Both the position numbers and the translations under genes were made by a program. A stretch of 63,081 nucleotides of DNA, filler included, from Collodictyon triciliatum (taxonomy: Eukaryota), in assembly GCA_043381765.1 (NCBI GenBank). It is 10 parts of 10 records of this genome, joined end to end, with 100 filler letters (N's around TTAATTAATTAA, not from the genome) between each part and the next. Parts side by side here need not be neighbours in the genome. Positions count along the whole stretch, not along the records: positions 56,878 to 63,081 come from JBHJMP010004639.1; 9 more parts are not named here. The stretch is one strand, 5' to 3'. Positions 1-63,081 of this stretch are shown in pieces. Within the stretch, counting starts at the first letter, position 1. The number at the start of each line of letters is the position of its first letter. Below the pieces are notes generated by a model. That model had not been told where the DNA came from. It ran no database searches and saw only the letters and a program-made list of their open reading frames with translations.

Positions 1-1080
1 CTTCTTTTTTACACTTGCAGCGTCTCGCTTCAGCAAATCAACCTTTGGCGTAAAGTCTTTGTCTGTGTCTTTGTCCACAGGCTGCAGGTCCCTGCGCAGA
101 AATTTCTTCCCCTTCAATATATTCATGTCCCCTTCATTCAGCGCCTTTAGTTTATATGTGGGTGCTTTAAATCCGTCCTTCGAGACTTCGCGGCTTATAA
201 TTTTAAACAACGCAACAGTGAATTTCGGTATCCAGTTTTTATTGGTCTTGAATTTATTGCGCTCTTGCGTTGTCAAATTTGTTTTCTTCAGGTTCACACG
301 CACTAGTTGCCCGACCTCTAGTAAGTCGTCCTTGACTGAAGTGGCGGCTCGGTCTAATTTTTTCTGGTTAGCTTCTATTAACTTTGTCAGATTTTCTTTG
401 GTGGCCGCGTTGTTGGGTATCACCCCGGTGTCACGGTTCGGCTGATCGTTGATGCTGTCTGCAGTTTTTTCTAGCACTTCTTTCGTTAAGGTTTCCCCTG
501 TCTTTTGGTGGTACTTGTACAAACTATTCTTTACCACAGAATTCATGCGCTCCACGTAGGCCTGGCTCGTTGGGTTGTACGGACTCGACTTGACTTGCTT
601 GAGGCCGTGTTCTTGCAACCACGCTTTCTCGTACTTGAACTCTGTGCCGTTGTCGCTCTGGATCACCTTCAGCGCAGGATAATCCTTCTTGAACTCGAGC
701 ACGGCCTTCTTGCTTTCGGCCAGAGTCTTGTCGGTCAGCGGGTACAGAAACACCTTGCGTGTTAAAAGCACCACACAGGTCATTAGATAATTGTATTTCA
801 CTCCAACATGGTCTTCTGGGTACAGTCCCTTGGTATATATCAAATCTATCTGTGCGTACGACGGATCAGTGACATTGAAGGAAGTCACGTCCTTGCTTTT
901 GTACGCAGGTTTGCTGATTTGCTGATAGGGATTCTTTTTCATCCAACCCTCAATGTAGCTGCGAGGTATCTCCTTGTTGAAGTGGCGATACATCGCTTCA
1001 ACACTATTTACTTGCCCTGGGTCATTAAACCTTTTCTGTAGCTTCTCGTTGTATTGGTCACTAGTACTTGGGTTACTCAT
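1..1080 (-). CDS. Retroviral-type (rve, DDE) integrase of Polinton/Maverick type, 3'-truncated by the window edge
   Basis: Absent from the ORF track because no stop lies in the window. Hand translation from ATG 1080: MSNPSTSDQYNEKLQKRFNDPGQVNS...YAQIDLIY...IQSDNGTEF...QAYVERMN...LEVGQLVRV...FLRRDLQPV. D-D-E triad present; colinear with 60257-61618. Confidence 0.92.
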   Translation of the reverse strand, partial: MSNPSTSDQYNEKLQKRFNDPGQVNSVEAMYRHFNKEIPRSYIEGWMKKNPYQQISKPAYKSKDVTSFNVTDPSYAQIDLIYTKGLYPEDHVGVKYNYLMTCVVLLTRKVFLYPLTDKTLAESKKAVLEFKKDYPALKVIQSDNGTEFKYEKAWLQEHGLKQVKSSPYNPTSQAYVERMNSVVKNSLYKYHQKTGETLTKEVLEKTADSINDQPNRDTGVIPNNAATKENLTKLIEANQKKLDRAATSVKDDLLEVGQLVRVNLKKTNLTTQERNKFKTNKNWIPKFTVALFKIISREVSKDGFKAPTYKLKALNEGDMNILKGKKFLRRDLQPVDKDTDKDFTPKVDLLKRDAASVKKK

Positions 1081-1170
1081 TACATTTACAATACTTTTTT
1101 TTTGTGAAAAAAACGCAGCTTAAAAACTATTCAAAATCATAGATTAACTAAACAAGAATTTGCACGCACA

Positions 1171-1623
1171 ATGGCACGCACGTTAACTAGACAAGAACAG
1201 CACGCCGACGACACTACAACCCGCACGTTGACCGGAGAAGAGCTAGCAAGACTCAACTACCTGTGTTTCATTGAATGGGGAGAAAACCTAGACGGCGTGC
1301 GACAGATGGTTACAATTGCAAGGCGCTTACGCAAAAGCACTCATAAAAACTACATGAAGAGAAAAGAGAAAAAGAAAGCGTCTTCTTCACAGTTTGTGTT
1401 TGTCGACCCCGACGGAGTCCAGCATAAAATGACGCCCCTGGTTGATTACCCGGTGACCCCCGTTGTCGATTACTCAAGCGCCTCTGCATCGTCAATCAAA
1501 ACTAGTTCATCTGAGGGTTCCCCCCGTGAAGCCGCTGAACGTGTTCGCAAATACCTGGTTACACCTGACCCTGCACCCTTCTATCCGCCTTCCCCTCCCC
1601 ATTTCTGCCCTACAGACGAATAA
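1171..1623 (+). CDS. Conserved hypothetical viral protein (homolog of 59875-60189)
   Basis: TGEELARLNYLCFIEWGENLDGVRQMV...YMKRKEKKK aligns with TVEELSLFNSFCLREFFMPLDSVRTMV...YKRRTLKKK, at the same syntenic position. Confidence 0.75.
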   Translation: MARTLTRQEQHADDTTTRTLTGEELARLNYLCFIEWGENLDGVRQMVTIARRLRKSTHKNYMKRKEKKKASSSQFVFVDPDGVQHKMTPLVDYPVTPVVDYSSASASSIKTSSSEGSPREAAERVRKYLVTPDPAPFYPPSPPHFCPTDE

Positions 1624-1661
1624 ATTATGTCTCATTTCTCATTTTATTCTGTCAACACTGG

Positions 1662-3983
1662 TCAACACTGGTCACAGTCATCAAGAAGATGTTTCTTCTT
1701 TAAATGTTCTTTGACATGTTTGTCGTCAAACACGTACTTTCTGCTTTGATTTTTTTTAATTCCTATCCTTTTCAACTCTTGTCCAAAATATTGGATTGTC
1801 CATATATCTTTACGTCCTGCTCTATTCATGACATCTCTGAACAGATCATAAACTTGTGTGGGTGTATGAGGCGTAACATATAAGGCAGCAAATCTATCAT
1901 CTGGGCCAACAAGCACATAATCTTCATATGTCATTAGTAAGAACTGGTCTATTTGTGTAATTTGTAATTGTATCTGTTGTTTCCAAAGTTCTTTTTCCTT
2001 TTGTTTACCCACGACATAACTTTCGCTGTTCCAAGTATTATCATACTTTGTAAACAAATATCTACAGAATGTCAATACGTGATCTTTATCATTAATAGCA
2101 TTCTTTAAAAACTGTTGGTTTTCCTCAGGCATCTTTTCTTCTTTACATTGCACAACCATGTATCTTCGATTGCTATCAGACATATTAAAAACTGATACGT
2201 TGTTTGTATTACAACATATGTGGACATAGTTGTTGGTCGTGTACTTGCCAAGACCTTTCTTGTGAATAACTATGTCGTTAGCGACTAAAGCATCTTTCAT
2301 AACATCAGTAAACTGAACAGCATCTTTGCGTTGCCCCTCCTCTAGCAACACAAATACTTTGTTTTCTATTAGATCGTTAAATTCACCGAATAACTCGGCC
2401 ATCTTGCTCGACTTTACCCCACACAATTTACCAATGATTTTATCTATAAACAAGTCCTGAGTAATAAATGATTTGCCGATACCCTCTGTTTCGCTATAGA
2501 AAACAAGACAAGTATGAAAACGACCCATCTCATGAGGTGCAAACAATAAATGAGCAAACCATTGTATAACATAAGCATAAACGTCAGAATCATTGTTACA
2601 CAATTGATTGTACAGATGGTCTGTAATCCAACTCTTATTGTAAAATTCGCTAGTCTCTTCATCTGTAAGTCTTACCTTTATGTCTCCATGCTTTTGTATT
2701 TCATAACCTCTGAACATATTGTATGTTTGAGGATACACAGATTGATCTAAATCTATGGGTAAATCTGGGCGCATTACTAGTTTACTGACTATTCGTTTAG
2801 CATCATCTCTTTTCAAATCATCAATAAAGTCAACAATACAACCTTTTCCGATCTTGTAATAGTAATGTCCGTATTGTATTTTGGCTTCGCTTTGTGTATA
2901 TGTGTGTAAAGTACCATCATCGTTGATTCTAATGAATTTACCATTCATGATAAAATGGTCTTTTTCGTATATTTCCTTGATATAGCTGTAAGCATAACGT
3001 CCTTCTTTTATCCCAACATGTTCACGTAATTCGGTAAATGTGGCACTATCAAGGTATTCTAGAAATAAGCCAAACAGTGAACCTACTCCTAACTCGCTCT
3101 TGACTTTGTTTTGTTGAACATTTTCAATCACACTTTTCAGCTGATTAATTCTATCTTCAATAGTCGATTTGGAATTATCTGGCATTTGCTCGCAAATTCT
3201 CAACCATAACTTTGACAAATCACGTAAACCATTATTAACAATTATGTAACATACCTTTATCCATGTGTCATAGTCGTCTGGTATATATTTGAATAAGTCC
3301 CGGTCTAAAGCCATTCGGACTAAACATTCGCATGTCGCTCTTTCTTGGAATTTAGGAAAACTACTTCGATTCACAACTAGTTCTTCTATTTCTGAATCGA
3401 CTGTGTCAGATGTTTGTGGTTCTTTTCTTTTCTTTGACTTGTACTTTGCTATCAGAGGCGTAATGTCAAATTCCTGTACATCGTTGTATATCAACTTGTT
3501 TTGGCGTTCCCATATATTTTTTGTTTTGAATATCACATCAATGTCTGGGTATCCTTCGTCTAAAACTTTTGTGCCCTCCCATTGCGGATTCCAGTTAGCT
3601 GGCTTCTTTATGTACATGTGAATCCCTTTTGTATTACCTGGTGTCCAACACATATCATCTGTGAAACTAGCTATTCCCAATTTTTCTCCGAGTTGGCTAG
3701 GAGTGTGTATGTTTTTGTCATCACAGTCAATACAAACAACATCCCAGTATTTCAAAAAGACTGAGTAACATCGTTGAACGGTTTTGCTTTCTTCTAATTT
3801 CATTTTGCGTTTCAACCTGGCAATCCAATTACCTGATACCCTGCTTTTTTCTTTCCATTCAGGTAAATCAACTAACGCACAGTTGTTTTTTTCTCTGACA
3901 GTTTCTTTTTGCCCATCAATCAGAACATAATGCGCATACGCATATGGCACTTGTTTTGTAGCTAAAAACTCTCCTATGTCCAT
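1662..3983 (-). CDS. AEP primase-polymerase + PriCT-2-like domain + D5-like SF3 helicase fusion (773 aa)
   Basis: AEP motifs VVCIDCDD (hhhDhD), GNTKGIHMYI (GhH) and DIDV. PriCT-2-like DYDTWIKVCYII. Helicase Walker A SETEGIGKS, Walker B VFVLLEE, motif C CNTNN, Arg finger SNRRYMV. Confidence 0.88.
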   Translation of the reverse strand: MDIGEFLATKQVPYAYAHYVLIDGQKETVREKNNCALVDLPEWKEKSRVSGNWIARLKRKMKLEESKTVQRCYSVFLKYWDVVCIDCDDKNIHTPSQLGEKLGIASFTDDMCWTPGNTKGIHMYIKKPANWNPQWEGTKVLDEGYPDIDVIFKTKNIWERQNKLIYNDVQEFDITPLIAKYKSKKRKEPQTSDTVDSEIEELVVNRSSFPKFQERATCECLVRMALDRDLFKYIPDDYDTWIKVCYIIVNNGLRDLSKLWLRICEQMPDNSKSTIEDRINQLKSVIENVQQNKVKSELGVGSLFGLFLEYLDSATFTELREHVGIKEGRYAYSYIKEIYEKDHFIMNGKFIRINDDGTLHTYTQSEAKIQYGHYYYKIGKGCIVDFIDDLKRDDAKRIVSKLVMRPDLPIDLDQSVYPQTYNMFRGYEIQKHGDIKVRLTDEETSEFYNKSWITDHLYNQLCNNDSDVYAYVIQWFAHLLFAPHEMGRFHTCLVFYSETEGIGKSFITQDLFIDKIIGKLCGVKSSKMAELFGEFNDLIENKVFVLLEEGQRKDAVQFTDVMKDALVANDIVIHKKGLGKYTTNNYVHICCNTNNVSVFNMSDSNRRYMVVQCKEEKMPEENQQFLKNAINDKDHVLTFCRYLFTKYDNTWNSESYVVGKQKEKELWKQQIQLQITQIDQFLLMTYEDYVLVGPDDRFAALYVTPHTPTQVYDLFRDVMNRAGRKDIWTIQYFGQELKRIGIKKNQSRKYVFDDKHVKEHLKKKHLLDDCDQC

Positions 3984-4165
3984 TCTTTTGTATAGACTTA
4001 ATTAATGTATATTGAACGCATTTCTTTAAACCAACAATTCTGAACGGTTGTGTAAGACTTTCTAGATTGTATGATGTTGAATAACTTTTTACCCGCCTCG
4101 CCTCAAGTCCAGTTCTTAATTCCAGAATTCGGTCCCTCCCTCCTTCTACTGAGTTATTAAAAGTA

Positions 4166-4305
4166 TTACATATCTTACATATCTTACATTTTATTCATTT
4201 AATAAATAAATAAATAAATATATACATATAAAGAAGTAAGGAATAGAGGGAGGAGAGCGAAAAAACGTTTTGCTAGATATTTTAAAAACCATGTAGGATA
4301 TGTAA
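4166..4305. promoter_or_regulatory. Putative replication origin of element A: inverted TTACATATC iterons around an AT-rich core
   Basis: TTACATATC-TTACATATC-TTACAT at 4166-4189, inverted copy ATGTAGGATATGTAA at 4291-4305, (AAAT)n core between. Lies upstream of the replicase gene. Function is inferred. Confidence 0.5.
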
Positions 4306-4309
4306 AACT

Positions 4310-4474
4310 TTAATCGAACAGGACCGTCACAGGCCCTTCTATAATGCCCCACATATCAGGACCTTTCTTTCTCCTACCCTTCTTTCTCAATGCCTCGAGT
4401 TTGTCAAAGTATTCTTTCAGTTCTTCAAAAGTAGCAAAGAGCATTTCACCCTCCATTGTATATAGTCGTAGCAT
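4310..4474 (-). CDS. 54-aa micro-protein conserved in both elements
   Basis: MLRLYTMEGEMLFATFEELKEYFDKLEALRKKGRRKKGPDMWGIIEGPVTVLFD*. Same length, position and terminal motifs as 57135-57299. Confidence 0.8.
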   Translation of the reverse strand: MLRLYTMEGEMLFATFEELKEYFDKLEALRKKGRRKKGPDMWGIIEGPVTVLFD

Positions 4475-4490
4475 ATCTAAGACTAGATAT

Positions 4491-5213
4491 TTAAAAAAGG
4501 ATTTCTTCCGAAAAGTTCTTGTAAGCTTTGATTCTGCGGGGTACCATCAGGTTTACATATAGAAAGCAATACGGATCTGCTGTAGCGAAATCAAAAACCT
4601 GGTCAAAGAGTTTCTGATCGAGATTGGTCATTTCATTGAGGGCTTCCCGTTCGTGTTTATTGTCGGTGTAAAAAGCAACGAGGTGGGAGGCGTTTTGTCG
4701 TACCTTGGGGTTGAATAACCTGATGGCATGCCCCACTACGATCATTGATAGTCTGAAATGACGGTGCTGTAACATTTTCTTGAGCAGGGTCTTACTAGGG
4801 CGTTCGAAAGCGGTGCCGAGGTCGTCGACCACCAGTAAGTACGCATTGTCCTTGAACTCGGGGTCACTGGTAATGTCTTTTGTGACTTGTTCAAAGATTT
4901 CCTCGTTAAAGTCCTCATACATGCGGCTTTTGTGAAATTTGACACCCTCGTAGCTTGAGTCATGAATTTCTCCTCCGGAAATGTTTGAAGAGCAGAAATA
5001 TACCTTGTCGAATATCTGGTGATACATTTCTCGCTTACCCAGCAAATTACTGATCAAGGTTGTTTTGCCGCTAGCGACTTTCGCACTTATAAGCATCCAG
5101 AAGGGTCTATCACTCTTTGCGTCCGGCAATATTTCTAGAATGACTTCCCGTTTGTTTTTCTTGGCTGTCTTTAATGGAGCAACCTCAATATTACTTACTT
5201 GCTTGCTTTCCAT
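4491..5213 (-). CDS. A32/FtsK-HerA-like virion genome-packaging ATPase
   Basis: Walker A AKVASGKT, Walker B LLVVDD, and the QHRHFRLSMIVVGH and RQNASH motifs typical of Polinton/virophage/NCLDV packaging ATPases. Confidence 0.9.
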   Translation of the reverse strand: MESKQVSNIEVAPLKTAKKNKREVILEILPDAKSDRPFWMLISAKVASGKTTLISNLLGKREMYHQIFDKVYFCSSNISGGEIHDSSYEGVKFHKSRMYEDFNEEIFEQVTKDITSDPEFKDNAYLLVVDDLGTAFERPSKTLLKKMLQHRHFRLSMIVVGHAIRLFNPKVRQNASHLVAFYTDNKHEREALNEMTNLDQKLFDQVFDFATADPYCFLYVNLMVPRRIKAYKNFSEEILF

Positions 5214-5219
5214 ACTTAT

Positions 5220-5549
5220 CTAACGAAATAAAAGATCATTGTCGTACGAAAGTTCCCGCACTTGAGCCTTGTCGACTGTTTCCTTTATTCTGCGCTTCTC
5301 GATTTTGCGGGCCTCTTCTTTTGTCAGATATTGTTTGATCAAGGACACGTCGTGCTGTAACGAAGAATAGTCGTGAATGGGTTTTTTGACGGCCTCGTAT
5401 TTCTTGACCGTCTGAACGATTTCCTTGTTCTTCTTCTTGGCTTCTGTCGCTTTGGGTTGAATCTTGGCAAGGTGGGCTCTCTGCTTTTCTGATACTATGC
5501 GTTTCTTTTTTGGTTTCTCTATGGTATCTATATTTTCGGGGTCGCTCAT
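5220..5549 (-). CDS. Lysine-rich basic protein (possible DNA-binding/core protein)
   Basis: KPKKKRIVSEKQRAHLAK... basic helical protein, 6 nt upstream of the ATPase start. Confidence 0.6.
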   Translation of the reverse strand: MSDPENIDTIEKPKKKRIVSEKQRAHLAKIQPKATEAKKKNKEIVQTVKKYEAVKKPIHDYSSLQHDVSLIKQYLTKEEARKIEKRRIKETVDKAQVRELSYDNDLLFR

Positions 5550-5581
5550 ACAACCACAGAGAAATAATTTCTGGCAAGAGT

Positions 5582-6219
5582 ATGGATAAAGCTTTCTACA
5601 TTTATGTTGATAGTGCCAACCGAGAAAGCGGAAGTATCGCAGACTTTAATTTCGCAACAACCCAAAACAGATATGTGTCGAGTAAAGCAAAAATTGGGCT
5701 AGAGTCTATCCAAATACCCAATGCTGTACACAACGTCACATCCGCCAACAACTCACTAGCTTTTCTGTGTCAGGTCGGACAAGACAGCCCTGTTTCATAC
5801 AATGTTTCACTAGAAACTGGTTTGTTAACTATCCAAGAAATCGTCAGTGACATCCGAACAAAAATGAACGCAGCAACCAATTCCCAGTCAGCCGCATTAG
5901 CTGTTTCTGTGTCGTATCTTAGTGGCAAGCAAAAGATAGCAATCAAAGGAGACGGTCCGAGTATTTCAATTCAACTATTTGTGAATAGTAGTACATGTAG
6001 AGAGCTCATAGGACTGACAGCAAATCTCACATTCAACACGTCGTTTGTAGAGCTACAGAATACAGTCAATATTCGACCTTTTGATTATGTGTACCTGGTG
6101 TCCCCGAACATTCAGAGTTCGAGCTTTGCCAGCAATATAGGCGGCAATGGCATCATCGCAAAAATACCGCTGAGTCTTGGGGCGAGATATGCGAGTTATT
6201 ACGAGGTCAATGACAATAT
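5582..6219 (+). CDS. Minor capsid (penton-like) protein, 3'-truncated
   Basis: MDKAFYIYVDSANRESGS..FNF...IGLESIQIPNAVHNVTSANNSL...YVYLVSPNI...IIAKIPL matches the DSxxR / IPNxxxNV...NN pattern of PLV/NCLDV minor capsid proteins. Likely start is ATG 5582, not GTG/TTG 5510. Confidence 0.75.
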
Positions 6220-7235: not shown

Positions 7236-9834
7236 AATAAATGTATGTGTCACGTTTAGTAATAATATATGCAGTGATACAAATACAGCTGCTCAACTAT
7301 AATAAACTCACATAATTTATCACTTAAAATTCACAAGAAAAATTCATAAAAATTGAAGCTCTCTAATGTATAATATGGCTATAACCATATAACATTAGTC
7401 AAAAATATCAGCATAAATCAAATTATAGTACATATTTTAAGGCTTACAATCTTACATTTATTTCAAACTGTAGTGCCGAACCCACCCGAGTCATATTCAA
7501 TTCTAAAAAAAAAGTGTATAACAAAACCGCCTTCGTATCTGTCTTAGTATTTAATATTCTTTTGAGTTCTAATTAATGCATTTTAATAAATTCAAACACT
7601 GCATGGTCAAATATATTATTGCTTTTTTTATTTTAAGTTTACTTTGACAAGTTTTAACGAAAATGTGTTTAAAATACGACATAACATATTTCTTAATGGT
7701 CAAATAACTGCATAAAAGCTCAAATGTTTACGTTGCTACATGTAAACTTTCAGCAATCTCATTAATAAATTGAGTGAAAGCTGCAACGCCCCTGTCAAAT
7801 ACGTTTATACCCAAGCGGCAACATAGACTTTGAGAGATATCATATTTTTAAAATCTTTATCAATATCTTAAATATTTGTTCGCCTCATATGTTTGTGTAA
7901 TAAAAAAGTAAATCTCCTGTATCAAAAAAAACTAAAATATATTTTTTTCTTGTAAATATGATAACAAGTAAGTGTAGTTAGATACGTTATAATGAATTTA
8001 AAAAGGATTACCGGTGCAGGATATCATTTTATAAAATTGGATTATACGTCAAAGTATAAAATATTATTCGATATCATTTTGCGTCTCACAAAGTAAAAAT
8101 TACTTCATCACTCAACAATGAACCACGATGGTCTCTCGTAAATTGTATCTTTGGGTATAGTATACCGCTTCTGCCCACAGATATGTGAATTTCTTCTGTA
8201 TTACTGATGTCCTATTCCTATATTCTATTCAAGGAATTCTGATTTACCATAACTCCTTATGTACGCGCACATCGCAAGACCCTAGTACAGTTTACTTCCG
8301 AACATGAAAAAAATCCTTTATTAATTAATCATTCAGACTGACATGTACATAATAAACAGAGAAGGCATCAAGCCAGCAGTTCTGACATATCAAATAAAAT
8401 ACCCAGCAATAAATAACGTAGGAATCAACACCCACTACTTGTAGTCTCTTTAACATTTACCCATCCGTCGCACCAAACACCAAGAAGCTACAGCAAACAG
8501 CACAGGCCAAATCCAAACTTGAAGCTTCACACACTAATGACAGTCCGTGCAAGCAGGAGCACATGTTCCTTAAACCACAAACGCATATTCATACTCCGGG
8601 TTGAGCAAAGTCCACTGCTGGTTGTGCATGATTTCAATACCAAATAAACGGTCAAGCTTCAATCCCATCAATTCTTAATAACCCTGAATAGCTTAGTTTT
8701 TTGGCTCAGACACCCAGAAAGAAATGCAAGAGAAGGGACCCAGTGTTCCATTAAAAAATACGCCGTAAAGTTAAATATTATTTACAAATTATCTCAGATA
8801 CAGCGACATAAACTCGACAGGACCGATTTTGGAAGAAACAGCCAAGTGCGAACTTTCATCAGTGATGCAACCTTGTGCGCTCTTCATTCAGTCTCAAACA
8901 TGAACAGAAACCTAGCTAAAGCTCTTCTATTTCCAATAAAATAGTCTACGTGTAATAAAACTTAATCTCAACTATGCCTCTAATCAATACTCTTTGATAT
9001 TATGTTTCTGCTGTCTTTCTTTCCGGTCAATCAAATTAATACAACTATCGCGCCGAAACTATAAAAATCCTATCAATTACATCCAATCCGATAATCAGAC
9101 ATCGATTTCACTTCCCCGTCTGCAGCTTATTTATGTCCTATTATTAATACAAGTTTTACTATTCTAGTTTTCTGTCTAAAAACCATTTCAACATTCCAAT
9201 ACATCATTTATTAACTTATATATTGTACCACTTGTACTTTGCAAATTTTTTTTATTATTTACAATCTGTATCTAAAGACCAATTAAATAGCTATAGTCTA
9301 TACATGTTATTTTGCATAATATGTGTCCATTCACATTTATTTGCATTTATTTGCATAATTCTGAGAGTTTCTCATCATTTCTACTCTATCCACATCAATC
9401 TGCATATATTACCTTTAATCCACATCAATCAGCACGCCAATTGCCATATAATTGCACTCTATCCCATTGTTCCCATCTGCCTTCCACACCATGCACCCGA
9501 GTCTCTTGCTTTACCACCTTTGCTTCTTCACCTACTTCGATATGCTGCGCTTCTTCGCTAGTCATCCTCTCTGCCGCCTAAGTACCGTCTTGCGTCCCTT
9601 GTGTCCCTCCCGCGCCGCACCATCTGCTTCCATTTTCGGTAGTGACCGTTTGCCCTGTAATAACACCCCAACTACCTATACACACAGCACCCTTCTTTCC
9701 CGCTTACCCACCGCCACAAAAAAAAAAAAGAATCTGTCCAAACTACCTACCTTGCTCAGGTACCATACCTTTGGCTCCATCTAATACCACATAAGGCCCA
9801 TCTATGCCATATCCGGCCTTTCCACAGCACGTGC

Positions 9835-9870
9835 TAACCCTAGCCCTGACTCTAACCCTAGCTCTGACCC
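9835..9870. repeat. Degenerate interstitial telomere-like hexamer array
   Basis: TAACCC TAGCCC TGACTC TAACCC TAGCTC TGACCC (an 18-mer twice). Confidence 0.5.
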
Positions 9871-56600: not shown

Positions 56601-56878
56601 ATATATTATTCGCATTTTATCAATAGGAAGATGTCCGAGCCATCACCAAGCAGACGATCTGACGCCGCCAACCAGCAAGAATCTGGAGACCAGAAACAGA
56701 CAGAACTAACCCGAGAACCCGCATCGGTCGATGAGAAAATCCGCGGAGGCTTGATTCCAGCCGCATTTTATTCTGATNNNNNNNNNNNNNNNNNNNNNNN
56801 NNNNNNNNNNNNNNNNNNNNNTTAATTAATTAANNNNNNNNNNNNNNNNNNNNNNNNNNNNNNNNNNNNNNNNNNNNG

Positions 56879-57118
56879 CACGCGATTCGTTTGTTTAATC
56901 CGAAAATCCGGCAAAATGCAAGTCACCTGGTTGCGTTTTATACAGACAACAAACACGAACGGGAATCTCTAAACGAAATAACAAACCTCGATCAGAAACT
57001 CTTTGATGAAGTCTTTGATTTTGCTACAGCAGACCCCTATTGTTTTCTCTACGTTAATTTAATGGTTCCTCGTAGAATTAAGGCCTACAAAAACTTTACG
57101 GAAGAAATCCTTTATTAA
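56879..57118 (+). CDS. Packaging ATPase, C-terminal fragment
   Basis: 73 of 79 aa identical (hand count) to the C-terminus of 4491-5213. Confidence 0.92.
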   Translation, partial: HAIRLFNPKIRQNASHLVAFYTDNKHERESLNEITNLDQKLFDEVFDFATADPYCFLYVNLMVPRRIKAYKNFTEEILY

Positions 57119-57134
57119 TATCTAGTCTTAATAT

Positions 57135-57299
57135 ATGTTACGACTATATACTCCTAATTCTGAACAACATGTATTTTTGACTTTTGAGGAGGCCCAGCAG
57201 TTTCTTGACTCGCTCTTTACAAAAAAGAACAGGGTAGACAGGAAAAGAAAATCTCTTTACTCTATTCTTCGTGGCCCTGTTACAGTTGTTTTTGATTGA
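57135..57299 (+). CDS. 54-aa micro-protein (homolog of 4310-4474)
   Basis: MLRLYTPNSEQHVFLTFEEAQQFLDSLFTKKNRVDRKRKSLYSILRGPVTVVFD*. Confidence 0.8.
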   Translation: MLRLYTPNSEQHVFLTFEEAQQFLDSLFTKKNRVDRKRKSLYSILRGPVTVVFD

Positions 57300-57477
57300 A
57301 CGGAACACCTGGACACCTGGACACCCTCTTTTCAAACTTTTTAAAATTCTGGACCCTCGGCCTTTTTTAAAAAAAAAGGGGTAGGGTCGGTATGAATTAT
57401 TATTTTTAGGAGGTGTCCCAGTAAGGGTGTCCCTAGGGTGTTCTTAAAAAAATGAGACTGAAAAGAGTAAGGAAAAA
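57288..57477. repeat. ~190-bp direct repeat, copy 1 (putative origin with GGACACC iterons)
   Basis: Near-identical to 62251-62441; internally palindromic. Confidence 0.9.
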
Positions 57478-57569
57478 TTAATCAAGGAACACCCTATCCC
57501 ACCTCAAGAGATACCCTAAAATGCCCACTTAAAAACATTTGTCTATGAGTAAGTAAGAACAAAAGAAAA

Positions 57570-59849
57570 ATGGAACTCATTGAATCAATCGACCCCGTTA
57601 TCATTGACAAACTTCTGCAACAATCAGCAGAAAAAGTAGACAAAAAGACAAAGGGAAAGCTAAGTGTAATTAAACAGCGATTAGTTAATGGACAACTGAA
57701 AGTGAAATATGATTACTCAAAGCACTGCAGAAAAATTAAAGTTGGAAGATTCTATCCAGCGAGTATTTCTGTGGGAATGTTGGAAAAGCCCCTGCGTAAT
57801 TATCTGATGAAGGATAAATATGCTAGTCTTGATATTGTTAATTGCCATTATGCTCTGTCTTTAGAACTGGCAAAAAAATGGGACACACCTTATGAAGCTA
57901 TTGAGAAGTATGTCAAGAACCGTGACAGTATAATTGAAAGGACAATGGAGTTAACACAAAAGACTCGCAAAGAAGTTAAGAAGCTGTATCTGATGCTGGC
58001 TTTTAGCGGCAAAGTCCAGCCAATTGACCAGTTTGCTACTCAACTGCAATCAGAAATGAACATGCTCGCAGCTATGGCATATAGCAAATATCCAGAATGG
58101 CACAAACTCAAACTTCGCGAGTCAGACGAATGTCTAGCTGATCACGACAATCGCATTTATAGTTTGTTGGCATATGTGCTTCAAACAGAAGAAACTAAAA
58201 TCATGCAGGTAGTGATTGATGCCTTGGTGAATAAAGGTGAAGTCGAAGTTGGATTTTATAATTTTGATGGGCTGTTTGTTGATAAAGTTGGATACGAATC
58301 CGGCGCAGGAATAGAAGAAACAAATGGTGCAATGAGTCAATATGTTGAAGAACAAACAGGGTATAAAGTAGAATTTAGCTATGAACCTATTGAATCAACG
58401 TTTAAGCCTGATGAAGTTGCTACAACAGTTTCAATTGCAGAATTTGCAAAGACTCATTTTATGTTACGCGGTGACTTGTTTGTTGAGTACCCGGATGAAC
58501 CCACTCGCAAACCCGAACATATTAAGTCTGCTGGATCTTATTGTCAAGAATTTGGAGACAAGTACTGGCAAAAAGTTCAGAGAGTTTTGCCAAAAGAAAG
58601 ACGATTCATGTACTTTGATTTTTTGCCGTATGACGGATTTACAAACAAGTATAACCCAAAGGCCTATAACAATTTTAAGGGCTTTAAATTTGAAGAGTAC
58701 TTTCCTGAATTCAATGGATTGCAGTTGAAAGATTGGATTGGGTACTGCAATCGCATAGCTTCTTCTGTTACTGTTGATGATTATAGTGTCTGGAAAAATA
58801 GCATGACATATAAACAATTGTCAAAGTATCTTTGTGCTAGTAATGCTGTCTCAGAGAAATATGTCATACAATACTTGGCTAGAATATTGTATCATCCGAG
58901 TTATCGCATTGGCAAAATGATGATATTTAGAAACAACAGAGGAGGGACAGGCAAGACTGCTTTCTTTCACAAACTGTTTGTCCAGCAAATCATTGGAAAG
59001 CAATACGGCAGTACACACTCAAGTCTGTCTGAAATATTTGGAGACAAGAATATGAATATTCAGAACAAGTTACTTTGCATTCTGGAAGAAAGTGATGTTT
59101 CAAAAACTAAGACATTACAAGGAGACATTAAAGAAGCTGTCGATCGTGACGAAAATCACATTCGTATGCTTTACCACAATCCTTATCCTGTAAAGAATAC
59201 AGTCAATTACATTCTTAACACCAACAAAGAAATCGGGATTGTTTTTGAGCGAGACAATATGAGACGCTTCCCTGTGTTTGATGTGTTGGAGCATCGCCTG
59301 AGTCCCGGGGAAATCAAACAACTGACCCAGGAGTGTTATGACTCTGACTTTGTTAAAATTTTTACTAAGGTGTTAATGAACGAGTATGATCCTAATTTCA
59401 ACTTTAATGACTTTCCAAAAAGTGAGACTTGTGAAGTACTGGCAGAAACTAGCATGCATCCCGTGGAACAGTTTATTAAGTTCTTGTTTGTTGAATGGAA
59501 TGAATACATCTGGGACACGTATGAGCTGACGTTCAAATCACAGTATCAATGGCATAAAGAAAAGGACGCATCACCATTTAGTCACAGTGCCGATGAGATT
59601 TATGACATATACAAAATGTTCAGCGCCAAGAGACTCCCGAATCACAAAGTGTTGGAGTTTAAATCGTTTACCAACAATGCACACTGGACAACATTTAAAT
59701 CTACCTATGGGGTTACGTCAAAGAAAGGTAAGTATGAATGCGACTATAAACAAGTCCGTAAATTGTTGACAGAGAATAGCAATTTGAAAAATCACTTCAA
59801 TTCTGAAGGAATCGTGAGCAGCGCCAAGAGAGCCCGCACAAAAGAATAA
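57570..59849 (+). CDS. TVpol (PolA-related transposon-viral polymerase/primase) fused to a D5-like SF3 helicase (759 aa)
   Basis: GRFYP...LRNYL, motif A SLDIVNCH, motif B RKEVKKLYLMLAFSG, LQTEE, motif C FDGLFV. Helicase GGTGKT, LCILEE, LNTNK, NMRRFPV. Same architecture as Sputnik virophage V13. Confidence 0.85.
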   Translation: MELIESIDPVIIDKLLQQSAEKVDKKTKGKLSVIKQRLVNGQLKVKYDYSKHCRKIKVGRFYPASISVGMLEKPLRNYLMKDKYASLDIVNCHYALSLELAKKWDTPYEAIEKYVKNRDSIIERTMELTQKTRKEVKKLYLMLAFSGKVQPIDQFATQLQSEMNMLAAMAYSKYPEWHKLKLRESDECLADHDNRIYSLLAYVLQTEETKIMQVVIDALVNKGEVEVGFYNFDGLFVDKVGYESGAGIEETNGAMSQYVEEQTGYKVEFSYEPIESTFKPDEVATTVSIAEFAKTHFMLRGDLFVEYPDEPTRKPEHIKSAGSYCQEFGDKYWQKVQRVLPKERRFMYFDFLPYDGFTNKYNPKAYNNFKGFKFEEYFPEFNGLQLKDWIGYCNRIASSVTVDDYSVWKNSMTYKQLSKYLCASNAVSEKYVIQYLARILYHPSYRIGKMMIFRNNRGGTGKTAFFHKLFVQQIIGKQYGSTHSSLSEIFGDKNMNIQNKLLCILEESDVSKTKTLQGDIKEAVDRDENHIRMLYHNPYPVKNTVNYILNTNKEIGIVFERDNMRRFPVFDVLEHRLSPGEIKQLTQECYDSDFVKIFTKVLMNEYDPNFNFNDFPKSETCEVLAETSMHPVEQFIKFLFVEWNEYIWDTYELTFKSQYQWHKEKDASPFSHSADEIYDIYKMFSAKRLPNHKVLEFKSFTNNAHWTTFKSTYGVTSKKGKYECDYKQVRKLLTENSNLKNHFNSEGIVSSAKRARTKE

Positions 59850-59874
59850 AATGAATGGTGGTTATTCCCACAAT

Positions 59875-60189
59875 TTATTTTGAGTTTGTTGATATAGATT
59901 CACTAGAAGACATTCCAGTTGAATAAACTTTAGGAAAGCGATCTTCAAATTCTACATAGTCTGGAATATGGATGTCAATCACAGGGGGTGTTATAGGTCT
60001 TTCAATATTAGCTATGGCGTTCTTCTTTTTCAATGTGCGGCGTTTGTAACCTCGGGAATTTCTAGCTTTTGTTCTGAGCCCACATGACACCATTGTGCGC
60101 ACACTATCCAATGGCATAAAAAATTCTCGGAGACAAAACGAATTGAACAGGCTAAGTTCCTCTACAGTAAAATGGAAATCCATTATCAT
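59875..60189 (-). CDS. Conserved hypothetical viral protein (homolog of 1171-1623)
   Basis: Shared EEL..N..C..E...LD.VR.MV...Y..R..KKK pattern and synteny. Confidence 0.75.
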   Translation of the reverse strand: MIMDFHFTVEELSLFNSFCLREFFMPLDSVRTMVSCGLRTKARNSRGYKRRTLKKKNAIANIERPITPPVIDIHIPDYVEFEDRFPKVYSTGMSSSESISTNSK

Positions 60190-60256
60190 TACATTATTGT
60201 ATACAGATGTTTTTAAGTTGCGTTTTAATGATGAAAAATAAAATGTATGTTAATAT

Positions 60257-61618
60257 ATGAGCACTAGTGATAATTATAATGAAAAATTACAGAAACGTTA
60301 TAATGAACCTGGACAAGTGAATTCAATTGATGCATTGTATAGACATTTCAATAAGGAGATACCTCGAAGTTATATAGTTAGATGGATGAAGAAAAACCCG
60401 TATCAACAAATAAGCAAGCCAGCTTTTAAAAGTAAAGATGTTAATCCGTTTAATGTAACAGATCCTAGTTATGCACAGATCGATTTGATTTATACCAAAG
60501 GGTTGTATCCAGATAACTATGAGGGTAGTATGTTTAAGTATTTGATGGTGTGTGTTGTTTTGTTAACACGCAAAGTATTTATGTATCCATTGACTGAAAA
60601 GACTTTGGCAGAATCCAAGAAGGCCGTACTTAATTTTAAAAAAGACTATCCACCTTTGAAGGTTATCCAAAGTGATAACGGAACAGAGTTTAAGTTTGAC
60701 AAACAATTTCTTAAGGAAAACGGATTAAAGTCAGTAAAGAGTTCTGCATATAATCCAACAAGTCAGGCATATGTTGAGCGAATGAATAGTGTTGTAAAAA
60801 ATTCACTATACAAGTTACATCAAAAGACTGGTAAAGATGTATTGACAAAAGAAGTCTTAGAAAAAACAGCTGATAGTATAAATGACCAGCCTAATAGAAG
60901 CACTGGTGTAATTCCTAACAATGCTACTACAAAAGAAAACTTGGAAAAGTTAATAGAAGCAAATCAGAATAAACTAGAAAAAGCTAGCAAGAGTGAAAGA
61001 GACAATGTGTTAGAAGTTGGCACAAAAGTTAGAGTCAGTTTAACTAAAACCAATCTAACAACACAAGAAAGAAATAAGTTTAAGACACAAAAGAATTGGA
61101 TACCTAAATTTACTACAGAGCTTTTTATCATACACAAAGTAAATATTCATAAGGAGGGATTTAAAGCACCAACTTATGAATTGAAGGGAATGAAAGAAGA
61201 AGACCAGAAAATATTAAAGGGCAAACGCTTTTTACGCAGAGACCTACAACCCGTGGATAAAGACACAAAAGAATTCAAGCCTGTAGTTGATTTAATTAAA
61301 CGAGACACAGAGTCTAAACCAAGAGGTAGACCTAGATTAATCGAAGAGAAAGTAAAAGCACGCAAGGCTTGGAATATGCTGTGGATGAACGCAAAGAATT
61401 TTACAAACAGAACAGGGAAGTTTGATGTTGGAAAAAAAGAACGACAAGAAGAATTAATAAAGGCACAACCCAAAATTAAAAAGTTGTTTGATGCTTTTAT
61501 TCAGACTTATACGGATAGTCCTCCATTGACTACTCTGCAGAAAAAGAACTTTGAAAAGTTAAAGCGTGTGATAGCAGAGCCAATAGAAAAAAGACGGAAA
61601 CAAAGTGTAAAGAATTAA
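60257..61618 (+). CDS. rve (DDE) integrase of Polinton type with a C-terminal AT-hook-like motif
   Basis: QIDL, QSDNGTEF and YVERMN catalytic triad; LEVGTKVRV...FLRRDLQPV C-terminal domain; KPRGRPR. Confidence 0.93.
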   Translation: MSTSDNYNEKLQKRYNEPGQVNSIDALYRHFNKEIPRSYIVRWMKKNPYQQISKPAFKSKDVNPFNVTDPSYAQIDLIYTKGLYPDNYEGSMFKYLMVCVVLLTRKVFMYPLTEKTLAESKKAVLNFKKDYPPLKVIQSDNGTEFKFDKQFLKENGLKSVKSSAYNPTSQAYVERMNSVVKNSLYKLHQKTGKDVLTKEVLEKTADSINDQPNRSTGVIPNNATTKENLEKLIEANQNKLEKASKSERDNVLEVGTKVRVSLTKTNLTTQERNKFKTQKNWIPKFTTELFIIHKVNIHKEGFKAPTYELKGMKEEDQKILKGKRFLRRDLQPVDKDTKEFKPVVDLIKRDTESKPRGRPRLIEEKVKARKAWNMLWMNAKNFTNRTGKFDVGKKERQEELIKAQPKIKKLFDAFIQTYTDSPPLTTLQKKNFEKLKRVIAEPIEKRRKQSVKN

Positions 61619-62187
61619 CTCTGTTTTTTTGGCAGAACAAAGCGTGGTTTTTTTTTCAACTCTTTTTGTATTTCTTTGGTAAGCTTACCCAAAGCATCAG
61701 GGTCTTGCTCCAATTCTTTGGCTTCTTCTTTTTCTTTCTTTTTCATTGAGGACTCTGCCTCTGCGACTATCTTGCGTTTCTCTGCGCGCTTGGGTTCATT
61801 CTCTTTTACTTTGGCTAAACCCTTTTTCTTTTTCTCAAGGTTAGCTTCTTTTGATTGTCTGTATATATCACCGATGTCTTTGGTGTTATTTGTCCAAGTC
61901 TTTCCGTAGTTTGTCATTCCTAGGACTTTACCTTCCTGGTCTTTCCATAAAGCATTACCCACTTCATTCTGAACCATTGAAACAAATCCTTGGTTGATTT
62001 TAGCAGGGTACTCTTTGCCATTGTACGATCGTGCTTTCATTTCATACATAATGTAGTCTCCTTTTTCCAAGTCTTCATATTTGACTTTGGAAAAATCTTT
62101 ATTGTCTGTTGGCAGAGTTGAAGTCTTTTTGCCTTTGGCTTTGTCTTCTTCGGTAGGCGCGGACTTAGAAAATTTTCGGGGCGGCAT
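61615..62187 (-). CDS. Lysine-rich protein with a central beta-rich domain
   Basis: 190-aa ORF whose stop overlaps the integrase stop in a shared TTAA; YEDLEKGDYIMY is SH3/KOW-like. Confidence 0.7.
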   Translation of the reverse strand: MPPRKFSKSAPTEEDKAKGKKTSTLPTDNKDFSKVKYEDLEKGDYIMYEMKARSYNGKEYPAKINQGFVSMVQNEVGNALWKDQEGKVLGMTNYGKTWTNNTKDIGDIYRQSKEANLEKKKKGLAKVKENEPKRAEKRKIVAEAESSMKKKEKEEAKELEQDPDALGKLTKEIQKELKKKPRFVLPKKQS

Positions 62188-62250
62188 ATTCCAGTCAATA
62201 TAATTGTTAAGTATCTATAACGCAAAGTCTTTAATACAGCAATTACTTAA

Positions 62251-62441
62251 GTTTTTGATTGAACGGAACACCTGGACACCCGGACACCCTCTTTTCAAAC
62301 TTTTTAAAATTCTGGACCCTCGGCCTTTTTTAAAAAAAAAGGGGTAGGGTCGGTATGAATAATTATTTTTTAGGAGGTGTTCTAGTAAGGGTGTCCCTAG
62401 GGTGTTCTTAAAAAAATGAGACTGAGAGGAGTAAGGAAAAA
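62251..62441. repeat. ~190-bp direct repeat, copy 2 (subterminal)
   Basis: Near-identical to 57288-57477. Confidence 0.9.
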
Positions 62442-62468
62442 ATGGAAAAGGATCAAGTGGGTAGAAGT

Positions 62469-62558
62469 GGACGGCTAAGTCTTGGACGGCTAACCCTAAC
62501 CCTAACCCTAGGACGGCTAACCCTAACCCTAACCCTAGGACGGCTAACCCTAACCCTA
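62469..62558. repeat. GGACGG-punctuated telomere-like (CCCTAA) repeat array
   Basis: GGACGGCTAA(CCCTAA)2CCCTA twice (27 bp each), plus one 21-bp unit and one partial unit. Confidence 0.9.
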
Positions 62559-62645
62559 GACCACACACACGCTTCCATATATGGTATGAATAACCGGGAA
62601 AGGACAGTATATAAAGGGTTGAAAAAGCAGGGTTGAACCGCCGCC

Positions 62646-62688
62646 TGTGGTATTATCACCTATATAATATAGAGGTGATAATACCACA
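62646..62688. repeat. Perfect 16-bp inverted repeat TGTGGTATTATCACCT-N11-AGGTGATAATACCACA
   Basis: Directly visible. Confidence 0.9.
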
Positions 62689-63081
62689 ATTGCTGTGGAT
62701 TTTTTCTGTTTGCCAACGCTCGTTCGTTGGGCATATACTCATTTGATGCATATATTTTATTCGCGTAGGAGCTGTGCTTTTTTTCCTTTTTACTTTATTT
62801 CTTTTAGTTATAAAAGGGAGATAGGTTGTTTTTGAAACACAGCGACTTTTGTGAAAGGCGTGATGTTGAAGTGAACACAAGCAAATGAGGTGACCAAGCT
62901 TCCGGGATAAAAATTAGTTGAGATAACCCAGATGATTTACAGAGCAAAATAGTCGATCTTATTCCCACAAAACACAACGAAGAACACATTTCACACAGAA
63001 ATACGTGAGAGCTTGTCACCTGTTGGGAGTTCGATGTTTTTTTGTTGCCGAAGTTGAATATTAAATAGAGGTCTGCATTTT

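Follow-up and report, generated by a model that had tools for sequence, protein, structure and literature searches.

An optional telomeric-repeat array inside the palindromic end of an endogenous polinton-like virus of Collodictyon triciliatum

Introduction

Little is settled about end replication, exit from the chromosome and activation in polinton-like viruses that lack a protein-primed polymerase. An integrated element in Collodictyon triciliatum raises a specific question of this kind: what does an array of the vertebrate-type telomeric hexamer do close to the end of a viral genome? The DNA analyzed (the window, 63,081 nt) is made of ten unrelated contigs of ∼6.2 kb each, joined by N linkers, and positions 56878–63081 correspond to contig C4639 (G000:C4639) of a 75.4-Mb assembly of 14,576 contigs. 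A preliminary description of this DNA placed the array at the terminus of the element and suggested that it may recruit host telomere-binding proteins for end protection, tethering or silencing. Telomeric repeats in viral genomes have a precedent in herpesviruses (PMC3533235; PMC7197865).

Results and Discussion

An Endogenous Polinton-like Virus

The array-bearing element is an endogenous polinton-like virus (Polisuviricotina), and the array is a real, internal and optional feature of this known kind of virus. Contig C4639 encodes the 3′ end of an A32 ATPase, a replicase, an rve integrase and three small ORFs. The gene of the A32-type packaging ATPase (56878–57118, + strand) is truncated by the contig start; its remaining 3′ part is 92% identical to a 240-aa ORF (4491–5213) that matches Pfam Pox_A32 (E 1.3e-8). 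It is followed by a 54-aa ORF kept in related copies (57135–57299, +) and by a 759-aa replicase (57570–59849, +), the C-terminal helicase-type ATPase region of which matches Pfam DUF5906 (E 3.9e-12) and a VapE-like family (E 2.5e-7). Further along lie a 104-aa ORF (59875–60189, −), an rve-type (retrovirus-like) integrase of 453 aa (60257–61618, +; Pfam rve E 8.1e-6, below the curated cut-off) with 39 related matches across the genome, and a 190-aa ORF (61615–62187, −) that reads inward from the element end.

An origin-like unit, a candidate origin by its anatomy of inverted short repeats flanking an AT-rich hairpin, occurs twice. The internal copy of ∼190 nt (57288–57477, +) is 96% identical to the terminal copy (62251–62460, +), in which the matched part spans 62251–62441 and related environmental contigs align on to 62460. 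No telomeric array follows the internal copy. The short repeats within these units are lineage specific. The unit is also found between the capsid gene and its neighbor in the related contig C5176 (L071:3974–4114), indicating that it moves between positions.

The capsid protein is known from relatives. C5176 contains a 526-aa ORF whose structural model (pLDDT 75) matches the double jelly-roll capsid proteins of iridovirus, PBCV-1, Sputnik and mavirus (E 3.5e-17 to 4e-11). Outside the window, contig C2053, which carries the partner end of the element, has an interrupted homologue with 62% identity, and the window's insertion may thus be defective. The gene is split there into two ORFs (L077:1413–2969). 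An ORF at 5582–6217 gave no Pfam match; a resemblance makes it a candidate for the penton (minor capsid protein) gene.

The ATPase, the helicase-type replicase, the rve integrase and the capsid protein of relatives together indicate a polinton-like virus without a visible protein-primed polymerase. The double jelly-roll capsid protein (in relatives), the A32 ATPase, and the integrase with palindromic ends and a 5-bp duplication are the features expected of this group. The protein-primed DNA polymerase B that marks a Polinton/Maverick in the strict sense was not found within the sequenced part, from which the middle of the element is missing. For that part the earlier statement that no terminal-protein polymerase is visible holds, as the replicase beside the integrase has helicase-type Pfam matches only and no Pfam match to PolB.

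Two further observations concern relatives of the element. Positions 1–6219 of the window (G000:C4630) are a fragment of a second, related virus, with a replicase ∼25% and an integrase 78% identical to those of C4639 and with origin-unit repeats unlike those of C4639, a pattern of module swapping. In a freshwater metatranscriptome (run X5), long contigs of a close relative cover most viral genes of 56878–63081, and these may represent DNA carry-over rather than expression.

The True End of the Element

The CA-ending 7-mer at 62559–62565, directly after the array, was initially taken for the terminus. This assignment was rejected, as copies stay alike for a further 123 nt: C11980 and C14058 match the window past 62565 and diverge from it at 62688, after a 43-nt palindrome (62646–62688). 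The palindrome has an asymmetric loop, ends in CA and is predicted to fold into a hairpin; its outer boundary is where the flanks of the copies diverge and agrees with the empty sites. The array lies ∼90–160 nt inside this true end, the element terminus being ∼130 nt further out.

Immediately outside the palindrome is a 5-bp target-site duplication (62689–62693, +), shared with the partner end (G000:C2053:4217–4221), where the five bases adjoining the palindromic end are the reverse complement of those that come after the element in the window. The insertion target is a host repeat (62689–63081) with 84%–93% matches in C2220, C9801, C5645 and C8248. In two of these, the uninterrupted paralogues on C9801 and C5645, both flanks are joined directly, with neither element nor array. 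The empty paralogous sites and the shared 5 bp fix both ends and the 5-bp duplication, and identify the array as viral. Since the target is a repeat, it is formally conceivable that the C4639 and C2053 ends belong to separate insertions that hit an identical position in different paralogues.

The DNA beyond the array had been described as unique; it is instead a conserved viral module (62559–62688) and then the host repeat with four further copies. The subterminal part of the module (62559–62645, +) is also present at ends without an array, and in C5176 it stands directly after a gene. The possibility that the array is flanking host DNA, named in the preliminary description as the outcome that would overturn it, was examined: the array is present in other copies with different host flanks and missing at the empty paralogous sites. 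Aligned insertions and the paired end also answer whether the array lies inside the terminal repeat. The C2053 end carries no telomeric array, which places the array outside the terminal repeat of this copy. What stays constant at the ends is the palindrome and not the array.

Form of the Array

The array (62484–62558, +) consists of a 27-nt unit repeated 2.8 times with 100% matches (TRF score 150) and contains eight telomeric hexamers. In the palindrome family of the window (family 1) the array unit includes a fixed 6-nt non-telomeric spacer. The regularity first attributed to the units holds for the 27-nt repeat, but not for a degenerate 15-nt lead unit (62469–62483, +), which has its first 10 nt in common with the array units and is kept in C11980 and C14058, nor for the last unit, which has two hexamers, not three. 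Two positional claims were borne out: the tract starts 28 nt past the matched part of the origin-like unit, and its C-rich strand points to the end of the element, the reverse of the arrangement in a right-hand telomere. Eight GGG tracts were indeed counted on the minus strand, with spacings of 6, 15, 6, 6, 15, 6 and 6 nt. The quadruplex-forming capacity ascribed to them is limited, since this spacing forces a 12-nt loop into any four consecutive tracts.

Runs of this hexamer are rare in the genome. A 15-nt telomeric run has 19 matches on nine contigs in the 75.4-Mb assembly, against 1,243 matches for a reversed control run. Five of the 19 lie at the window array, and 15 fall on six of the nine contigs, all six being viral ends. 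The only run of at least five units in the assembly sits at an array-bearing end, and no long array was found outside C9190. On inspection, the telomeric runs of C1726, C2137 and C11504 were not counted as viral terminal arrays, and neither were the runs of two units found within a coding region of C1853 and on the host side in C1687. C11504 (L042 1–665), which looks non-viral and is possibly subtelomeric, shows a degenerate G-rich repeat grading into telomeric hexamers, with several single telomeric motifs beyond. Short telomere-like motifs also occur in a host repeat family (window 9834–9868; L075:6799–6830).

Distribution over Viral Ends

Twenty-two ends were compared: 15 of the window's palindrome family, six of a second family found via C9190 and one of a third, with further palindrome families left unscored. 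Twenty of these were scorable, C9640 and C9746 being too short upstream. Telomeric arrays are present at 6 of the 20, in two lineages and in opposite orientations. The C-rich strand points toward the end in C4639 (eight hexamers), C11980 (six) and C14058 (two), and the G-rich strand in C9190 (six), C1227 (three) and C1644 (three). Between C4639 and C9190 the integrases share 36% identity, and the palindromes of the two lineages are unrelated. The distance from array to TATA box is nevertheless similar in both lineages, with the strands opposite. Only one unit, a degenerate one, stands between the same flanks in C9818. The end on C14058 is on the capsid side, and an array may therefore be present at both ends of some copy. 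C14058 differs from C5176 by the origin-like unit and the array, and the sequences of C9190 and C1227 diverge just inside the array.

Related elements are present in four environmental runs from four studies. One environmental contig joins 62256 to 62616 and lacks the origin-like unit and the array (62257–62615); among the contigs listed for the four runs, none bridges the array. No RNA contigs over the terminal region were seen among assembled contigs. Short contigs on 62490–62537 in runs X1, X6 and X7 were set aside and not counted as support, since telomeres from other organisms could be their source. No relatives turned up in a viral-contig collection, either by protein (four scans) or by pattern (two scans). 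None of 11 metagenome capsid-gene loci has a tandem telomeric run, though none of them was seen to reach a palindromic end.

The Terminal Cassette

The array has a defined position relative to other terminal features. A predicted, outward-facing TATA-box consensus (62608–62615, +) lies 38 nt inside the palindrome at a spacing conserved among ends. An outward TATA box at 36–38 nt from the palindrome was found at 19 of 22 ends, compared with 19 of 1,867 background windows; because the ends are homologous, a variant pattern was added (C14058, one of the 19, scored only after this) and the TATA region was used in defining ends, the count measures conservation and not independent events. All six arrays are placed between the origin-like unit and the outward-facing TATA box. 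The origin-like unit is found just inside each of the six array-bearing ends, internal copies of the unit lack an array, and no such unit was seen adjoining array-less ends in a survey made partly by eye.

At other ends the same slot holds arrays resembling heat-shock elements. Such arrays, with three to five units, lie upstream of the terminal TATA box at eight ends (C2053 [L047/L077 ∼4070–4145], C26, C6548, C8335, C3611, C4189, C8058 and C2935), compared with 4 of 832 background windows with at least three units, by a score devised after the sequences had been viewed. Telomeric and heat-shock-like arrays never occur together, and 6 of the 20 ends have neither. As ends are related by descent, the six telomeric and eight heat-shock ends represent about two and two to three independent events, respectively. 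Similar heat-shock-like stretches were seen by eye at ends of the metagenome loci L202, L206 and L209. The palindrome found upstream of the integrase gene is a different one in other lineages (L142:3388–3435, L143:8226–8267, L151:5775–5822, L152:3727–3772). In C1334 and C1687 the palindrome is only ∼60 nt upstream of the integrase gene, a gap that leaves little room for a promoter on that side.

Host Factors

Candidate proteins for both types of site are encoded by the host. The C-terminal Myb domain of a protein on C3541 has TRF1 and TRF2 as its best PDB matches (E 2.8e-11); a Myb protein on C6296 has weaker TRF matches, and C7547 shows the C-terminal motif only. Eight HSF-domain matches and a telomerase RNA-binding domain are also present. 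By eye, host promoters use TATA boxes, and the HSP70 gene on C3751 has a heat-shock element and a TATA box in a layout as at the viral ends; of three HSP70-family upstream regions inspected in this way, one has a clear heat-shock element, one a partial one and one none.

The telobox was rejected as a general host promoter motif. A double telomeric repeat was seen by eye upstream of none of seven histone genes, and enrichment is only about twofold: of 158 matches listed for a degenerate 10-mer, the first 100 include 26 with a telomeric core (12.5 expected), and the first 21 include none. Searches for the telomeric hexamer and for 6- and 7-nt repeat classes gave no long array that could be singled out as the telomere in this microsatellite-rich assembly, from which telomeres may be missing or withheld. 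Arrays of the reversed hexamer were considered as the host telomere and are treated as microsatellites, since they are internal and do not show one orientation at contig ends (first 100 of 457 matches listed).

Possible Roles of the Array

We favor, with a probability of about one half, the reading that the array provides optional sites for a host telobox protein, by which a promoter or an origin is opened or insulated. The array would offer double-stranded, orientation-independent sites to a TRF-like Myb protein of the host, placed between the terminal origin-like unit and the outward TATA box that points into the terminal palindrome. The bound protein would keep nucleosomes off the stretch or protect it against silencing, and the open stretch would help the promoter, the origin or both. 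Other ends would fill the same slot with heat-shock-element-like arrays, hexamer copy number would change by slippage, and end protection and priming would more probably be tasks of the palindrome. Protein binding, promoter activity, origin activity and a benefit to the virus are what we infer from this arrangement.

Recruitment of a host telomere-binding protein, as first suggested, is plausible, since the host Myb domain has TRF1 and TRF2 as its best PDB matches. Known telobox elements comprise two or more double-stranded repeats in tandem close to a promoter or an origin, and here two to eight hexamers stand near a predicted promoter and candidate origin at six ends, with a candidate host Myb protein. 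Orientation independence, the tolerance of two to eight copies and the recurrence in two lineages fit such sites and not capping or a quadruplex. The six ends in two lineages, the concentration of 15 of the 19 runs there, the exchange with heat-shock arrays and the TRF-like host Myb protein thus argue for the telobox reading. Against it count the dispensability of the array (14 of 20 ends lack it, six of these carry neither element, and an environmental contig skips it), the internal origin-like units without an array, and the finding that host promoters do not use the motif in general.

The tie to the origin-like unit is explained equally well by a neutral origin, which is possible but rather less likely: telomerase or a captured telomeric fragment may have filled the join of the origin-like unit and the terminal module, with slippage afterwards. 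Consistent with this, all six array-bearing ends have the unit just inside, none was seen beside array-less ends (partly by eye), and the array marks a module boundary both in the comparison of C14058 with C5176 and in the divergence of C9190 and C1227. Either orientation is compatible with repair, the host has a telomerase RNA-binding domain, and the mechanism has been proposed for short interstitial telomeric sequences (PMC6410037). Junction filling, however, requires a host telomerase that makes this hexamer, of which no long array is visible in the assembly, and two independent events at a nearly equal offset from the TATA box; the fixed 6-nt spacer and the single degenerate unit of C9818 also fit growth from a pre-existing site.

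The likeness to telomeres could also be incidental, the array being a set of sites for a protein of the virus or a helper virus, or a chance hexamer multiplied by slippage. The lineage-specific repeats of the origin-like units do indicate that these viruses evolve repeated binding sites, and the assembly is rich in microsatellites. That one hexamer should appear in two lineages with differing origin repeats, palindromes and array flanks, when its runs rank with the rarest of this genome (19 matches compared with 1,243 for the reversed control), makes this improbable.

The role originally proposed, protection or tethering of a free viral end, whether through telomere proteins or through a G-quadruplex that would substitute for a terminal protein, is in our view very doubtful. 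The array is <200 nt from the true end, no protein-primed polymerase was seen in the sequenced part and a TRF-like host protein exists. Yet the array is internal, missing from the partner and from 14 of 20 ends, and reversed in the second lineage; C14058, C1227 and C1644 have only two to three G-tracts, too few for an intramolecular quadruplex; and a hairpin-capable palindrome is present at 22 of 22 ends, as follows from how ends were defined. Recombination of the array with host telomeres as a way of targeting integration, known from HHV-6 and Marek's disease virus (PMC3533235; PMC7197865) and in keeping with a subtelomeric enrichment of virophages in another protist (10.64898/2026.07.28.741278), is refuted for the window's copy by an exact 5-bp duplication in a host repeat that is not telomeric, a duplication of the kind left by an integrase, and is highly improbable in general, as no array-bearing end has a telomeric host flank (the flank of C9190 being only 10 nt).

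Relation to Known Systems

The closest functional model for a telobox array that assists an origin is oriP of Epstein-Barr virus (EBV), which is aided by TRF2 sites (PMC3533235). Analogous to its dyad-symmetry element, short internal telomeric sites stand beside a viral origin, here the origin-like unit (PMC3533235; PMC13223232). The EBV sites are single and fixed, with binding and ORC recruitment shown, whereas those described here are tandem, variable and optional candidate sites in a virus with its own replicase. For the promoter version, Tbf1 and Teb1 act at promoters through the telomeric repeat (PMC6410037; PMC4839565). As in the S. pombe histone box bound by Teb1 and the S. cerevisiae Tbf1 sites, at least two telomeric repeats lie upstream of a start, which is here a predicted one. 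Those sites are bound by a Myb protein and are nucleosome excluding or insulating (PMC4839565; PMC6410037), but they serve host genes and not a virus, and no such box was seen at the seven histone genes here.

Other mobile genomes have telomeric repeats at or near their ends. HHV-6 and Marek's disease virus carry the same repeat near the genome ends and integrate into telomeres through it; the present element has an integrase, a 5-bp duplication and non-telomeric sites. In the Oxytricha TBE, a Tc1/mariner transposon, the host telomeric repeat forms the outermost bases of both terminal repeats (PMC4724952). The array here is, in contrast, internal and one sided (absent from C2053), and its hexamer is of vertebrate type.

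Among related viruses, endogenous virophages and polinton-like viruses of Halocafeteria seosinensis have terminal palindromes, for which hairpin priming was proposed (10.64898/2026.07.28.741278). In both systems the elements encode an rve integrase and a replicase other than pPolB, and a palindrome (52 nt there, 43 nt here) adjoins the target duplication. In the passages of that preprint covered here, telomeric repeats appear only as neighboring host sequence, and there is no account of an internal array, a terminal TATA cassette, an inverted loop or palindromes that stand alone. Replication modules of Polisuviricotina are bracketed by repeats (10.64898/2026.10.13.758929); as here, these are separate from the terminal repeats and bracket replication genes, and a legend lists small repeat arrays and palindromic repeats. 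The string "telomer" has no occurrence in the main text of that preprint. A term search of the available text of PMC8547959 gave no mention of telomeres, palindromes or hairpins, and the available part of PMC12747079 has nothing on internal arrays. For the ends of polinton-like viruses, the literature covered, which takes in few subscription papers and no preprint supplements, gave no description of telomeric arrays, heat-shock elements or solo palindromes.

If a TRF-like host protein binds the array, the viral use of telomere proteins extends from herpesviruses to protist viruses; if the array is filler, it is a minor trace of repair. In either case the locus family provides a testable anatomy, with an exact end, both loop orientations, solo scars and a TATA cassette with two alternative elements.

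Palindrome Orientation and Solo Palindromes

The asymmetric loop of the family-1 palindrome points one way at 9 of 15 ends and the other way at 6. Among eight ends with near-identical adjacent sequence the orientations are divided 4 to 4, and the second palindrome family also shows both. Both loop orientations are a prediction of replication by hairpin transfer or concatemer resolution. Ends that flip-flop through these mechanisms are established for parvo- and poxviruses.

The 43-nt palindrome also occurs alone. Seventeen solo copies in host DNA (C1215, C1481, C1632, C5834, C165, C360, C506, C2281, C3061, C3126, C3958, C7329, C7886, C8955, C326, C1774 and C9097) are flanked by a 5-bp duplication, exact in 14 and with one mismatch in three. 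Their outer arms are unlike in 7 of 17, compared with 0 of 15 ends, as expected if left and right ends were fused when the element was lost. The solo palindromes are candidate excision or deletion scars, analogous to solo LTRs; the loss may have come about by viral exit or by host recombination.

We regard as speculative, and on balance improbable, a reading in which an outward promoter for the host polymerase, with exchangeable sites for heat-shock factor or a telomere protein, acts as a life-cycle switch controlled by host factors. In the integrated virus the promoter would point into host DNA. It would gain a viral target only once the ends were hairpinned, joined or mirrored in a replication intermediate, and could then transcribe the terminal genes that face inward. 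The solo palindromes whose outer arms are unlike would be scars of an exit through the palindromes. The second palindrome family has three solo copies as well, and further families of terminal palindromes, 42–48 nt in length, are found on integrase-bearing contigs (L141, L145, L146, L150, L124 and L159).
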